Positions 38,369-43,446 of a DNA stretch of 43,446 nucleotides are shown here, in pieces. The translations under genes were made by a program, and so were the position numbers. The stretch is from a virus. Its lineage: Duplodnaviria > Caudoviricetes. The notes under the pieces are model-generated. The model did no database searches. It saw only the letters and a list, made by a program, of their open reading frames with translations, and was not told where the DNA came from. Position 1 is the first letter of the stretch; every line of letters begins with the position of its first letter. The stretch spans positions 1 to 43,446 of the IMG/VR virus record IMGVR_UViG_3300005764_000032. The stretch is one strand, 5' to 3'.

Positions 38369-40096
38369 TCAGGCGGCCAGGGCGCCGGCCAAGGAGCCCA
38401 GTGATCCTAGGTAGCGATCATATGCGCGTGCGGATATGTCGGTTGCCAAGGTCGGACCGGTGATCTCGTCGAAGATCAGCACGTTGTGAGTCACGCCTTC
38501 GGGTAGCTTGGCGCGCGGGTTGGGCTTGCGTGCCCAGGGCGCATCGGTCGTCAGTCGTAGCTCGTCGCCGATGCGCGCCAGGTACTGTTGCAGGTGCCAT
38601 TGTCGCGACGCTGCGAAGCCCGCGACTCCGATCCGCACATTGGCGAAAAGGATGCAGTAGACCCGTGCTTGCCTGGCGACCGGCAGTCTGTCGAATGCAT
38701 CGAGGGGGCTATCGAGCAGGATCGCGCACGTCTTTTCCAGGGCGGCGTCGTCAAGCCGTGCATCTTCTTCTTCGGCGACCTGCTGTTGCAGAGCGCTGAT
38801 TTCAGCCTGGACCTTTTTGAGTTGTGGTACCAGGGCCAGCCCTAGCTCTTCGTCGTTGATGACCTGTTCGGCCAGGACGTCTCGTCGCTCTTCGAGGTAT
38901 GCCATGCGCTGGGCTGCTGCAGATGGCTCACGTGTGGTCAGGTGATTACGCGCCGCTTCGGCCAGACCCTGGACGTTGGCCATGGCTCGCGGGAGCTCCT
39001 GGCGCAGGATCTGTAGCGCCACGTTCTCGACGATGAGCTGTGGTTCGGCGCAGGCCAGTCCGCGGCGACCTCTGCCTGAGCCAACAGCCGGGCAGGCATA
39101 TGTGCCGGGACCGTGACCGATCATGCGCGCGCCACAGCTGACGCACTCGAGCACGCCGAGCAGCAGATGCTCAGAGGCGGTGCCCTTCATGATGCGGGCG
39201 TTAGCCGGTTTGGCGAACTTGCGCTGCCAGCGCCGCACGCGGGCTGGTTCCCAATAGGCCAGGTCGGGGCGGTGCTGAGCGAAGGTCTTTGGCTGCCGGG
39301 TGAGCGGATCGATCGCGAACTTGTCCCACACGGTGGAGCGCTGCGTGAGCTTGTCGCCGAAGCTGTAGGTGCCTACGTAGATGCCGTTGTTGAGGATGTA
39401 GCGCAGGCCGTAGACGTGCCAGCGCGTGCTGTCGCCGCCGCGGCCGCGGAAGGCTGGCCGTTGCGGCCCCTGGCTGTTCAGGATGCGCACGATCTGGGCA
39501 AGCGTGTCGTGCTCGTCAAATAGCTCAGCTAACCGCTCGATCACGTGAGCCTGGTCGGGGTCTTTGGCAACGTGCTTCTTGCCATCCTCGCCGGCGACGT
39601 TGTGGTAGCCGAGCGGCGTCTTCATATACAGCGGCTCTTTCTCCAGCTTCTTGAAGATTCCGCTCCAGAGCGTGTTGCGGATGTTGCGCCAGTCGATGCC
39701 AGCGATGAAGCACTGGAACTGAAACTGCAGCAAGTCATCCTCGAGCCGCAGGTTGTACTCGCGGTCCCAGGTGTGGAAGCGGCCGCCGGCTTCGACGATG
39801 CGGCGGGCGATGAGCGCGCCGTCGACGCCGAACTCGTCACGAGTCAGGCGCTTGACGTCGAGGGCACCGATGCCGTGGATGACACCGGTGCGTAGGTCCT
39901 CGAGCATGCCCAGTGCGATCTTGCGCTTGGACAGGTCGGCGCCCGAGGTGCCCTGCTCGTCATAGATCCGGACGGAGTAGCCGCGCTCCTGGATGCGTGC
40001 GGCCAGATCGCCCTGCACCTCCGAGCGGTAGTTACCGATCTGCCGAGCAGTGGAATTGCGGATGGTGAGACCGATGATGAGTTGGCCGGTGGTCAT
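38369..40096 (-). CDS. int: Large serine recombinase (integrase)
   Basis: IRNSTARQ (catalytic Ser), DEQGTSG, KRLTR, PLGY, ILNNGIYVG, zinc ribbon LLLGVLECVSCG..YAC, and a coiled coil. Confidence 0.93.
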   Translation of the reverse strand: MTTGQLIIGLTIRNSTARQIGNYRSEVQGDLAARIQERGYSVRIYDEQGTSGADLSKRKIALGMLEDLRTGVIHGIGALDVKRLTRDEFGVDGALIARRIVEAGGRFHTWDREYNLRLEDDLLQFQFQCFIAGIDWRNIRNTLWSGIFKKLEKEPLYMKTPLGYHNVAGEDGKKHVAKDPDQAHVIERLAELFDEHDTLAQIVRILNSQGPQRPAFRGRGGDSTRWHVYGLRYILNNGIYVGTYSFGDKLTQRSTVWDKFAIDPLTRQPKTFAQHRPDLAYWEPARVRRWQRKFAKPANARIMKGTASEHLLLGVLECVSCGARMIGHGPGTYACPAVGSGRGRRGLACAEPQLIVENVALQILRQELPRAMANVQGLAEAARNHLTTREPSAAAQRMAYLEERRDVLAEQVINDEELGLALVPQLKKVQAEISALQQQVAEEEDARLDDAALEKTCAILLDSPLDAFDRLPVARQARVYCILFANVRIGVAGFAASRQWHLQQYLARIGDELRLTTDAPWARKPNPRAKLPEGVTHNVLIFDEITGPTLATDISARAYDRYLGSLGSLAGALAA

Positions 40097-40353
40097 AGCT
40101 CGTTGTTGATAACGGCTGCTGCCATGGGGTCGGTCGAGGACAGTCCGCCTATCGCAGCGAGCGCGCGTCTGACGGCCCAGTTAGTAGCGGTCGCATGGTC
40201 GGCGGCTGTGGCGGCGCGCCCGGGTTTGTTCCGTTTAAGCGCAAGCTCCTCGGCGTTGTTCATAACCGACTGGCCGAGCCTGGCAGCTTCGATCAGGACT
40301 TCGAGCACCTGACGATCGATCTCTACGGTCGCGCGGGGCGTTGCAGTGTTCAT
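40093..40353 (-). CDS. Hypothetical protein coupled to the integrase
   Basis: Headed by AAGGAGAGTCACCCATG. ATGA overlap with int. Confidence 0.7.
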   Translation of the reverse strand: MNTATPRATVEIDRQVLEVLIEAARLGQSVMNNAEELALKRNKPGRAATAADHATATNWAVRRALAAIGGLSSTDPMAAAVINNEL

Positions 40354-40365
40354 GGGTGACTCTCC

Positions 40366-40533
40366 TTAGCGGGGTGCTTGATATTCGAGGCAGCGCCACA
40401 CGGGCGCCAGAGCAGGGCAGCCACACGCCGGCTGTCCGTTCTGATACGGGGTTCGATCGAAGCGACACACGGCGCGCTGAGCGTGGATGACGGCCGGGTG
40501 GATGCGGCACCAGCGCTGCTCAACGTCGCTCAT
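40366..40533 (-). CDS. Small Cys-rich protein
   Basis: MSDVEQRWCRIH...VCRF...CGCP. ATGA overlap with the upstream gene. Confidence 0.55.
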   Translation of the reverse strand: MSDVEQRWCRIHPAVIHAQRAVCRFDRTPYQNGQPACGCPALAPVWRCLEYQAPR

Positions 40534-40751
40534 GCCCGGCCCCGCACGACCAGGCGTGCGCCGCAGACGATGGCCAGGACGTCCAGGATCAGGCCGACGA
40601 AGACGATCCAGAGCATGACGAACATGTCCAGGCTGGGCCCGACAAGGCGCAGGAAGAAAGGCACGGCCGGGCCGGCAATGAGCGGGCCCAGGACGGCGCA
40701 CAGGAGCAAGCCGACCAGGGCCAGGGCCGCGCCGGCCAGGCGAATGGTCAT
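40530..40751 (-). CDS. 2-TM membrane protein
   Basis: Two long hydrophobic segments. Confidence 0.65.
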   Translation of the reverse strand: MTIRLAGAALALVGLLLCAVLGPLIAGPAVPFFLRLVGPSLDMFVMLWIVFVGLILDVLAIVCGARLVVRGRA

Positions 40752-40791
40752 GACAGCAGCCACATGACGACGAGGAGGACCATGCGCGGGC

Positions 40792-41058
40792 TCATGGCTG
40801 ACCGTCCTGGCCGCGGACGGCGCGCTCGAGCGTGTCGCGAACCTCGAGCAGTCCGGCGTCGGTCAGGTACAGCAGCGAGTACTCGACAGTGCGCGCGATC
40901 GCGCCCGTGCCAGACTCCCAGCGGTACACGCTCTGCGCGGTGACGTCGAGTAACTTGGCCAGGTCGGCCTGGGTCAGGCGGTGGGCGAGACGCCAGGCGC
41001 GCAAGCCCTGCGGCGTACGCAGGGCCAGCGTGGGGCGTTGTCGGGTGCGGGTGGTCAT
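40792..41058 (-). CDS. XRE-family HTH protein
   Basis: LRAWRLAHRLTQADLAKLLDVTAQSVYRWESG. The start is defined by the GGAGAGTCACCCATG motif. Confidence 0.85.
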   Translation of the reverse strand: MTTRTRQRPTLALRTPQGLRAWRLAHRLTQADLAKLLDVTAQSVYRWESGTGAIARTVEYSLLYLTDAGLLEVRDTLERAVRGQDGQP

Positions 41059-41083
41059 GGGTGACTCTCCTGTTGAGCGCACA

Positions 41084-41346
41084 TTATGTAGGATCGGGGC
41101 AGAACCAGTACGTCGTGCTGCGCACGGCGCTCTCGTCCCAGGTGCCCCACTTGTCTTCGGGGTTTTTCTTGACCCAGTCGCCGGGCGTTTCGATCTGCAC
41201 TTGAGGTCGCCGTAAATCGAGTGCATACCCTCGGGCATGAGCGGCGGGCGGGCGACTTTTGCGGCGGTGGTGCCAGAGCGGTACGCGCTCTTGGCGGCGC
41301 GGGCAACACGCTGCTCGAGCGCGTCGAGGCGTTCGTCCGGGGTCAC
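41084..41346 (-). pseudogene. Small gene with an apparent 1-nt frameshift near 41200
   Basis: The GC3-rich frame switches from MTPDERL...YGDLK to VQIETPGDWVKK...CPDPT*. Restoring one G (CTC AAG GTG) joins the two frames. Confidence 0.45.
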
Positions 41347-41858
41347 TGCTTTCGCCTCGGCACTGCGTGGTAGATCTCCCAGGTGTTCTGGTCATAGACT
41401 GCCATCAGCCCGCTATCGGCCATCAGGCGCATGCTGGCTAGCGCTAGCGCGGCGTCATCGTTCTCTTCAGCTAGTTCCTCCTCAACGCGCTCTACAAACT
41501 CGGGCTCCATGCCTAGCCAGAAAACGATGTCGCGCAGGACGAGGTCATGGACATGCCAGGATGGGCCCTCGGCACTGATGCGAGTAGCAAACTTGCCGCC
41601 GGTGCGGCCGCGGACGACCCACCGCTCACGACGTTGCCAGTCCGGGTCGTTCTTGACGCGCTCGATGAGCCGTGTCATGAGCGTGTCGAAGCGCTCGCTA
41701 AACGATGACGGCGACGGCGCGCCTGGTGAAGTTGCAGGTGCCTGCGTGCTTTGCTCGATACCGAGATAAGCGGCCTCATCAGCGGCAGTCAGCGGCGGGG
41801 CGCCGGTCCGTGCTCGCGCGGCGCGTACCTCTTCAATTGTGGGGCGACGGTAAATCAT
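41343..41858 (-). CDS. Hypothetical protein
   Basis: Variant motif AAGAGGGTCACCATG at the start and GTGA overlap downstream. Confidence 0.65.
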   Translation of the reverse strand: MIYRRPTIEEVRAARARTGAPPLTAADEAAYLGIEQSTQAPATSPGAPSPSSFSERFDTLMTRLIERVKNDPDWQRRERWVVRGRTGGKFATRISAEGPSWHVHDLVLRDIVFWLGMEPEFVERVEEELAEENDDAALALASMRLMADSGLMAVYDQNTWEIYHAVPRRKQ

Positions 41859-42092
41859 GGTGACCCTCTTCGTTGTCGTTGTAGGCCAGGCCGGCATCGG
41901 TCAGGTAGAGCAGTGAGTACTCGACCGTGCGCGGGATGGCGACGTTGCCAGACTCCCAGCGCCACACGCTTTGTGCGTGTGGATCTCAAGTAGCCGCGCG
42001 CGGATCAGAGCAGCGCGCTGCAGCGGTCGCAGTGTGGCAACGTCGCCGGCGTCGGCCGGATCGATCATGAGCATGAGCTTGACGGTTTCCAT
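41833..42092 (-). pseudogene. Frameshifted paralog of the 40792-41058 XRE HTH gene
   Basis: An alternative frame reads AQSVWRWESGNVAIPRTVEYSLLYLTDAGL, against AQSVYRWESGTGAIARTVEYSLLYLTDAGL in the intact gene. There is an extra AC at about 41977-41981. Confidence 0.7.
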
Positions 42093-42102
42093 GTGACTCT
42101 CC

Positions 42103-42351
42103 TCAGTGTGGGCCCATAACCCACGCGTAGTCGGCGAAATTCCGGTGGTGGCGCCAGAGTGCGTAGCGGACGGTCTGGCGGAGCAGCGCTGGCGTCCAGC
42201 GGGTATCAGTGTCCAGTCCTGGCGCGTGCTCTACGGCATAGATGATGTCGTTGTCAGGCGTGGCTACGTGCGTCCGGGCTAGCCAGCGGTCGATAGCGCG
42301 TGTCGGCACGAGCGGACTTGTGCGTGGCTTGCGCTCAGTTTTCATCGTCAA
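42103..42351 (-). CDS. Hypothetical protein
   Basis: Fills the operon. Its stop abuts the next start motif. Confidence 0.65.
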   Translation of the reverse strand: MTMKTERKPRTSPLVPTRAIDRWLARTHVATPDNDIIYAVEHAPGLDTDTRWTPALLRQTVRYALWRHHRNFADYAWVMGPH

Positions 42352-42529
42352 TGACCTCGACTGTGATCACGACGTTGCGCCGATTGAACCGGCGCAGCCA
42401 CTTCGCCACATCTTGTAGCGCTGGCGCGTGGTCGTCGCTCACGATGTACGCCGCGTACTCGTGAGTGTCGGCAGTCTCGCCGGCAATCACCTTGCCGGAG
42501 ATTCCGGCGCGCATGGTTCCGTGTTTCAT
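42335..42529 (-). CDS. Hypothetical protein directly downstream of the hammerhead ribozyme
   Basis: Starts with AAGGAGAGTCACCCATG. Confidence 0.7.
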   Translation of the reverse strand: MKHGTMRAGISGKVIAGETADTHEYAAYIVSDDHAPALQDVAKWLRRFNRRNVVITVEVIDDEN

Positions 42530-42542
42530 GGGTGACTCTCCT

Positions 42543-42613
42543 TGACCTGTCGTCTTCAGGGCCGGTAGGTCAGGTCCGGCCGACGTCGGACGTTAGGTGT
42601 CCGACGTTTCGAC
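42543..42613 (-). ncRNA. Type II hammerhead ribozyme with loop I pseudoknot
   Basis: Minus strand reads GUC GAAAC GUCGGAC accuaac GUCCGAC GUC^ GGCCGG accUGACCUa CCGGCC CUGAAGA c GAC AGGUCA. All core nucleotides, three stems and a 6-bp pseudoknot are present. Confidence 0.9.
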
Positions 42614-42795
42614 TAAAACGGCAGTTCGGCCTCCGGATCGATCGGCCGAGGCGCCTGGTGGGTGTGGTGCTCGAGCCACTCGGCGACGTCCGACCACTGC
42701 GAGCAGGCGCCTTCGTTGTGCTGCGCAATGGTGTGTTTGAAGCCTTCGGCGCACGTGGCAGCGAAGTACTCGGCGCCGCACTCATAGCAGTTCAC
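42613..42795 (-). CDS. Small Cys/His protein
   Basis: CYECG...C...C...HHTH. Its stop codon forms the 5' edge of the ribozyme. Confidence 0.65.
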   Translation of the reverse strand: MNCYECGAEYFAATCAEGFKHTIAQHNEGACSQWSDVAEWLEHHTHQAPRPIDPEAELPF

Positions 42796-42998
42796 GATGC
42801 GTGCTCTTCGACGCGAAAGCCTGGCAATGGGCGTTTCGAGAGCATCGCTTCGGGCCGGACGGTCAGGAATGGCTCGTCTGCACCGGGCGTGCGGTCAACG
42901 AGCACAAAGTGCTCGGCGATGAGCGTGCCGAGGTGCTCGGCACGCGCTGTCGCGGCAACGGGGTTACCGTCGGAATCGTAGATGACGTACATCAGCAT
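42792..42998 (-). CDS. Hypothetical protein (in-frame upstream start at 43064 also possible)
   Basis: GGAGAGTCACCCATG at 42996-43010 and a variant motif at 43062-43079. Confidence 0.65.
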   Translation of the reverse strand: MLMYVIYDSDGNPVAATARAEHLGTLIAEHFVLVDRTPGADEPFLTVRPEAMLSKRPLPGFRVEEHAS

Positions 42999-43120
42999 GG
43001 GTGACTCTCCAGACGCACGGCAGACAAAGACGTTGTATCCAACATTGCGGAAGTTGTGTTCCATTTGTGTGACTCTCTCTCGTGTCCCGTGTTCGGAGCC
43101 CGTTCGGCGCCGACAGACAC

Positions 43121-43149
43121 AAGATGCCCTACAAATTGTAGACGGTCAA
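43121..43149 (-). promoter_or_regulatory. Sigma70-like early promoter with a palindromic operator in the spacer
   Basis: TTGACC-17 nt-CATCTT on the minus strand. The CTACAA-T-TTGTAG palindrome (43129-43141) lies in the spacer and an AT-rich region lies upstream. Confidence 0.65.
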
Positions 43150-43251
43150 GCGCATAAGGTTGAGAATCTGTAAAAGAATTGTTAGGTCTGGCTGCACAGA
43201 TTTTGAGCCGGGGTGGTCAGCGCACCCCGTACCCTCCGGGGCCGCGCGCGC

Positions 43252-43365
43252 GAGCGAGCACAGCACCGGCCGCGTCGGCTAGCGCAGCGCAGCCTTACCG
43301 GGTCGCGCCGAGCGCAGCGTAGCCGGTGCAGCGCAGCACAGCGCGCAGCGCAGCGTAGCAGCGCA
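43252..43365. repeat. Degenerate AGCGC pentamer tandem array
   Basis: Runs such as AGCGCAGCGCAGC, AGCGCAGCGTAGC and CAGCGCAGCGTAGCAGCGCA in non-coding DNA. Confidence 0.75.
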
Positions 43366-43446
43366 CCCGGGCAGGCCCCGGCGACAAAGCGCCACCCCCC
43401 AGGTACCACGTCCCCTCTCAAGAAGTTGACCGCCGAGCGTGGGTGG

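Follow-up and report, generated by a model that had tools for sequence, protein, structure and literature searches.

Between two small early genes of a soil phage, the minus strand at 42613-42543 is, by the structural features tested, a type II hammerhead ribozyme with a loop-I pseudoknot, predicted to cut between 42582 and 42581. In related phages the hammerhead is conserved by paired base changes, and one additional C in its core probably makes this copy slower than its sisters.

A hammerhead fold in the early region

The analyzed DNA, called the window throughout, is one virus record of 43,446 bases with 66% G+C that is estimated to be complete. It encodes a terminase large subunit (824-2206; Pfam PF04466), for which the best matches among cultured-phage terminases lay at 27-38%. 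Other genes include a primase-polymerase, an exonuclease and a serine integrase (38369-40096), and from this gene content we regard the phage as temperate. On the minus strand, 38369..43064 forms a probable early operon of small genes without a named family, an HTH gene and the serine integrase, presumably co-transcribed. A terminator-like hairpin lies 3' of the integrase end of the run (38232-38200, minus strand), and a terminator scan of the minus strand from this hairpin to the genes upstream of the ribozyme revealed no other. Since the small genes run leftward without an intervening terminator, a single leftward early transcript from 43064 to 38369 is plausible.

A candidate early promoter region, read by eye, is located at 43129..43149 on the minus strand, where TTGACC (43149-43144) is followed by a perfect 6+6 palindrome (43141-43129); a sigma-70 promoter scan of the window returned 0 sites. 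The palindrome, CTACAA-N-TTGTAG, stands right after TTGACC and upstream of the first early gene, recurs with two mismatches at 42406-42418 and is a possible operator in the promoter spacer. Low-complexity GC-rich repeats (GCGCTGC-like) occupy 43210-43400, upstream of the early region near the record end. A GAGAGTCAC-type SD motif stands before seven early genes, at 43077, 43009, 42540, 42101, 41868 (variant), 41069 and 40364. Several relatives share GAGAGTCAC(CC)ATG. It is longer than the SD core, and a protein or an RNA might bind there, or recombination might take place at it. A 91-nt direct repeat (40849-40939 and 41887-41977, 85% identical) duplicates part of the HTH gene, apparently out of frame, at the end of gene 42092-41901, and this duplication may have left that gene shorter than its homologues.

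Upstream of the ribozyme lies a 60-aa gene without a named family (42613..42795, minus strand), whose TAG stop overlaps the first ribozyme G; downstream follows a 64-aa gene (42335..42529, minus strand) resembling unnamed viral protein clusters. Some of these ESM Atlas clusters have YonK members, a match below the naming bar that we treat as a weak lead. At the end of gene 42795, directly before the ribozyme, a hairpin and then GUUUUAGU (42655-42612, minus strand) give a weak terminator- or pause-like shape.

Read along the minus strand, the fold opens with the 5' strand of stem II (GUC, 42613-42611), G42613 being the last base of the upstream TAG, and continues with one canonical half of the core, G12-A13-A14-A15.1 (GAAA, 42610-42607). 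Stem III has 9 bp and a 7-nt loop (42607-42599/42591-42583), with A42607-U42583 as the A15.1-U16.1 pair, and leads into the cleavage triplet GUC (NUH; 42584-42582), in which C17 is 42582. Stem I, of 6 bp (42581-42576/42565-42560), closes a 10-nt loop that contains UGACCU (42572-42567). Next come the canonical catalytic core CUGAAGA (C3-A9, 42559-42553), the extra C (42552), which lies between A9 and G10.1 and can pair with G12, the 3' strand GAC of the 3-bp stem II (42551-42549), and a pseudoknot strand, AGGUCA (42548-42543), that forms 6 bp with UGACCU of loop I. The next SD and start, AGGAG-AGUCACCC-AUG (42527..42542, minus strand), place the SD from 42542 and the ATG at 42529.

Every hammerhead part listed in a preliminary description of this DNA is present where that description had placed it, and all 24 pairs (9+6+3+6) and every core base are intact. 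The window copy has the type II core, the NUH triplet, the three-way junction with stems I and III closed by loops and an open stem II containing G10.1-C11.1, and its duplex between loop I and the post-stem-II tail has 6 bp, compared with the at least 4 bp that define the pseudoknot. It departs from the consensus core, which has no insertion, by the one C between A9 and G10.1. The ribozyme had also been described as the whole intergenic gap; it ends 13 nt before the ATG, and only together with the SD spacer does it fill the 83 nt.

Model matches and compensatory changes among relatives

A loose type II descriptor matched the window once and none of 200 dinucleotide shuffles (both strands). The Rfam model RF02276 aligned over all of its positions (1-66/66) with 33.5 bits and an E value of 4.9e-5, as the preliminary description would lead one to expect, though 3.5 bits under the gathering score of 37 bits. 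A routine Rfam scan at the gathering threshold consequently gave 0 matches in the window; this score is a curation cut-off, not a structural feature, and also misses the small copies of the relative G001 described below. In control genomes, the same model had 0/14 matches at E≤0.001. The global folding z-score of the ribozyme region was only -2.37, with 4/200 shuffles equally good. Neither the descriptor nor model R1 detected a second hammerhead in the window, and blastn of the ribozyme against 50,697 GenBank phages found no match. Among the sequencing runs listed as carrying the locus, none was an RNA run. In contigs of four DNA runs, probably from the source sample, the listed pieces covered 42427-42590 and 42625-43121 without differing letters and none spanned 42591-42624; this set was not used as evidence.

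Homologues were sought with a metagenome scan for the core plus SD motif (120 loci, most of them not ribozymes) and its viral counterpart (35 loci). L549 has a hammerhead at the identical junction, where gene 42613-42795 has its counterpart directly upstream (a homologue with E 7e-12 at 39% identity). Both proteins end in ELPF-stop, and in both the G of the stop codon is the first ribozyme base. The L549 ribozyme has the same pseudoknot loop and strand as the window copy, lacks the extra base, carries a G-C to C-G change in stem I and has 3 more nt in its SD offset. The stem III sequence differs from that of the window in both L549 and L537, yet still pairs (fully in L549). The same ribozyme design occurs in L537 and L605, where homologues of the HTH gene and of window genes 43064 and 42092 adjoin it.

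Across eight family copies from six contigs, the window included, 91.2% of cells were paired, a value reached by 0/500 shuffles. Two-sided changes affected six pairs, three in stem I and three of the six in the pseudoknot; the set is small and related, with L587 linked only via L532. Compensatory changes of the kind the preliminary description had proposed to look for in related phages are present in both helices. Its identification of a pseudoknotted type II hammerhead is borne out by this covariation and by the RF02276 match below the gathering score.

A recurrent layout of stop codon, ribozyme and SD

The earlier description had implied that the arrangement is rare. A pattern with one extra base matched at least 133 viral loci, for an estimated 280 or so IMG/VR stretches, and the pattern without it at least 128 viral loci, for about 900 stretches; phages commonly have this architecture, with the adjacent SD as part of it. 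Requiring stems of at least 5 bp and applying no pseudoknot filter, we kept 130 distinct ribozymes with the extra base and 114 without, among the matches listed. An SD and start within 22 nt of stem II followed 81/130 of the former (8.6% at random positions) and 75/114 of the latter (9.5% at random), again among the matches listed, and their median cut-to-start distance was 55-56 nt. Upstream, an ORF of at least 45 codons ended -20..+3 nt from the ribozyme start in 101/149 of the matches listed, against 8.1% in the control. SD offsets in sister copies ranged from 0 to 15 nt.

The pseudoknot is likewise a shared trait. For the 130 extra-nucleotide ribozymes among the matches listed, the mean loop-tail duplex was 4.48 bp, compared with 3.04±0.08 when partners were swapped. 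Alignment A1, comprising 79/89 dereplicated copies (10 short-loop rows were left out), showed 94.3% pairing and two-sided changes in all four pseudoknot pairs counted, a covariation that is partly by construction, since stems and a pseudoknot had been conditions for including a row. In 20 hand-picked sister loci, 24/36 RF02276 matches passed the cut-off, which places the extra-base form within the Rfam family.

In several phage or prophage contigs (L026/L027, L040, L054-L056, L132 and L233), type II hammerheads form arrays of three to eight or more copies, every one of which precedes an SD. In L046 and L042, hammerheads are mixed with twisters.

The extra C after A9

An insertion between A9 and G10.1 is a known natural hammerhead variant (PMC3705267), and the preliminary description had regarded the additional nucleotide as harmless. 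The letter may matter, however. Among the matches listed, the extra nucleotide of the 130 phage ribozymes was U in 124 and A, C or G in two each. It is U in the homologues L537 and L605, absent in L549 and C in the window. According to the review PMC3705267, U at the insertion site raised the rate of the CChMVd hammerhead 3-4 fold, and C or G there gave "major detrimental effects". The strong U bias, taken with these CChMVd rates, fits selection for catalysis across phage copies, and the C of the window is both rare at this site and one of the letters predicted to be detrimental.

A nearest-neighbor model without pseudoknot or tertiary contacts offers a possible cause, namely pairing between the extra C and the catalytic G12. 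The probability of this pair was 0.59 in the window, and the median for pairing of G12 with the extra base was 0.48 in 10 C copies versus 0.11 in 130 U copies. The window copy is probably attenuated, or slower than its sisters, and processing may therefore be partial.

If the penalty were severe, the element could be a decaying copy: a real hammerhead descended from an active ancestor, largely inactivated by the extra C and retained as a carrier of stop codon and SD. The scarcity of C among sister copies (2/130, as opposed to 124/130 with U, among the matches listed), its detrimental effect in the CChMVd hammerhead (PMC3705267), the computed G12-C pairing and the existence of relatives with altered cores (CCGAUGA in three G008 copies and one G001 copy, CCGAUAA in one G001 copy) or without a ribozyme all point this way. 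We nevertheless consider decay unlikely. The window retains all of its pairs and core bases, and tertiary contacts can offset core variants (PMC3088659). Moreover, in nine other natural C-bearing copies from eight loci the stems are preserved, the loop-tail duplex measures 3-6 bp and an SD is present, and two of these copies exceed the Rfam cut-off (L058, 43.7 bits; L131, 44.8 bits). C-specific scans yielded 69 viral loci, mostly stemless, and 122 genome loci, of which 16 contained 23 high-scoring copies.

Gain, loss and replacement among relatives

We examined 14 early-region stretches from terminase relatives (19 loci) and integrase relatives (4 loci). G001 (L351; C1 995-2668) contains four miniature hammerhead-type copies before a window-type SD motif, GGAGAGTCAC; two have canonical cores, one CCGAUGA and one CCGAUAA. 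G008 (L332 1678-2504) has three CCGAUGA (U4C) copies, each directly before a GGAGAGTCAC SD. As it is 88-97% identical to G001 over common stretches, G008 does not count as independent of it. Copies in both are near-identical type II miniatures with a 5-bp stem III and a short loop I that RF02276 misses. An HDV-like-looking stretch in L332 near 3061 had no Rfam support and was rejected. In G011 (L341 6768-6714, minus strand), the homologue of gene 42342-42103 is immediately followed by a twister-P5 ribozyme instead, which scores above the cut-off at 38.5 bits. The slot following that homologue holds a hammerhead in L532, a twister in L341 and neither in the window.

No ribozyme was found in 11/14 early-region stretches, several of which are fragments, and we conclude that the element is dispensable in the phage family. 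RF02276 run over 15 relative records gave nothing near the cut-off and two weak matches at chance level, blanks that carry little weight because the model also missed the real copies of G001. A 12-bit R1 match in L362, an integrase relative, was taken as chance (E 0.74).

Across relatives, zero to four hammerheads, or a twister, occupy shifting slots in the early operon. Directly after the ribozyme and SD, L549 and L537 have the homologue of gene 42092; the window has two other genes in between, bounded by the SD-motif copies at 42540 and 42101. Judged from these sequences, the distribution suggests a phage family that favors self-cleavage, itself predicted, at early-gene boundaries without requiring it.

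Such rearrangements would also be expected if ribozyme-SD repeats persisted mainly as short homologies for swapping small early genes, with cleavage incidental, and the near-identical repeated cassettes of G001 and G008 would suit that role as well as the differing position of gene 42092 does. Recombination, however, requires sequence identity and needs neither catalytic bases nor covarying pairs, the window contains just one copy, and G011 has a twister at a comparable slot. We give this explanation, which is compatible with processing of the message, hardly any credence as the main reason for the persistence of these elements.

Predicted consequences for the early message

Hammerhead self-cleavage generates products with a 2',3'-cyclic phosphate and a 5'-OH. 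In the window, the ribozyme would cut the leftward early message at 42582/42581, 39 nt before the next SD and 52 nt before the ATG, in line with the roughly 40 nt to the RBS that had been estimated. The GAAA and stem III block (42583..42610, minus strand) would remain with the upstream product. The downstream product would begin at 42581 with a 5'-OH on the 6-bp hairpin of the stem I block (42560..42581, minus strand). The core remnant and then the pseudoknot strand would come next, with the SD at +39 and the ATG at +52. The working model published for elements of this kind is the processing of early polycistronic mRNA (PMC3088659), as also proposed in the preliminary description, and cleavage in the window is predicted.

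By analogy with characterized ribozymes, we hold it somewhat probable that cleavage processes a polycistronic mRNA here and insulates and stabilizes the downstream unit. RNA of the downstream genes would then be more stable and independent of upstream sequence, much as with RiboJ. We favor an insulating and stabilizing effect because RNase E handles 5'-OH RNA poorly, as reported for a 5'-hydroxylated substrate (PMC4191395), and because, with the synthetic RiboJ leader, mRNA rose about twofold and protein 2-10 fold (PMC6206723). Decay can, on the other hand, begin at a 5'-OH end, as the glmS case shows (PMC6765202), so that the sign of the effect would depend on the host.

The opposite outcome would be a destabilizing cut that leaves a cyclic phosphate on the released upstream cistrons, exposes the downstream RNA to a 5' exonuclease, or both, for a fast early shut-off resembling that of glmS but without a ligand. 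Decay does follow glmS cleavage (PMC6765202), and early genes are plausibly needed only briefly. We judge this quite improbable, given that the downstream product has a base-paired 5' end and a pseudoknot and that the narrow distance to the SD (median cut-to-start 55-56 nt among the matches listed) fits leader building better.

The preliminary description went further and proposed that folding or cleavage tunes the adjoining SD and everything downstream, including the integrase. In such a translational switch, the pseudoknot or the cut would gate the SD, maybe coupled to ribosomes at the overlapping TAG. The pseudoknot strand does abut the SD, the upstream stop overlaps stem II, and blocking the pseudoknot strands lowered the computed cost of SD opening by 0.4-2.0 kcal/mol. 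Cleavage, however, shifted the computed opening cost of the SD..ATG region by only -1.3 to +0.4 kcal/mol (12 comparisons). The SD begins after the pseudoknot strand and belongs to no ribozyme helix, a layout different from that of a ribozyme switch that sequesters its SD. Its variable offset (0-15 nt in sisters, 3 nt more in the L549 orthologue) also speaks against gating. The integrase lies 2.5 kb away, its start being 2,485 nt and 7 ORFs further along, and none of the four integrase relatives has a hammerhead in the fetched upstream DNA, so the proposed integrase link found no backing. A switch of this kind seems to us very improbable.

Processing into an insulated downstream unit thus being the reading we prefer, the ribozyme and SD would together act as a portable module at gene boundaries in a shuffled early operon and not as a regulator of a single gene.

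Discussion

Pseudoknotted type II hammerheads between prophage genes have been known in phages since 2011 (PMC3088659). In that work, Perreault et al. described type II hammerheads with a loop-I pseudoknot, their proximity to prophage integrases and clusters flanking single genes; the clustered prophage hammerheads cleaved in vitro and in E. coli (PMC3088659). The window ribozyme resembles this RF02276 prophage type II group in topology, core, short stem II, pseudoknot between loop I and tail and location among small phage genes near an integrase; it differs from the set described there in its extra C, its score 3.5 bits under the cut-off and its occurrence as a single copy rather than a cluster. 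The same report includes the HHphage hammerhead of haloviruses HF1/HF2, 13 nt before an early start codon (PMC3088659), and three type II hammerheads of D. vulgaris near phage-like genes cleave in cells (PMC8782182). Like the window copy, these stand a short way before a start codon in the early region of a phage, or beside phage-like genes. They have in vivo 5'-end or cleavage evidence, other core variants and other hosts, whereas the window copy is known from sequence.

Further systems share single traits with the window copy. The CChMVd (+) hammerhead (De la Pena and Flores 2001, via the review PMC3705267) has its insertion at the same site, but it is a viroid replication ribozyme with loop-loop contacts and an A at that site, as opposed to an intergenic type II element of a DNA phage with a C (PMC3705267). 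RiboJ offers a functional analogy, in that upstream RNA is removed and a hairpin is left before the RBS; it was engineered from the sTRSV hammerhead plus an added hairpin and has no family relationship to the window ribozyme (PMC6206723). The Pistol-like PK hammerhead (PDB 8YDC; PMC11300833) also combines a hammerhead core with a pseudoknot. We rejected it as a model for the window, which keeps a 3-bp helix II and a separate pseudoknot, whereas in the Pistol-like variant a pseudoknot supplied by an additional stem-loop replaces helix II (PMC11300833). The work in PMC13725137 concerns eukaryotic RNA viruses. We found no published quantification of the SD-adjacent layout or of the U bias in a mainly open-access literature, and the extra-U subfamily may already be in print.

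Taken one step beyond processing at a single junction, the early operons could consist of interchangeable RiboJ-like cassettes of ribozyme and SD that give each small gene its own protected leader and permit free shuffling, the extent of cutting at each junction being set by the presence and letter of an extra nucleotide behind A9 (none, U or C) or by a U4C change. No extra base, U and C after A9 and the U4C core are all states seen in the window's phage family. We offer this extension tentatively and regard it as doubtful in its full form.

The function of ribozymes near phage genes has been called open or largely elusive (PMC6155905, PMC6765202). The window locus is one of hundreds and leaves that role unanswered. 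Its value lies in a natural comparison set within one phage family, in which homologous early-gene boundaries have no extra base (L549), a U (L537 and L605), a C (the window), arrays of core variants (G001 and G008), a twister (G011) or nothing.
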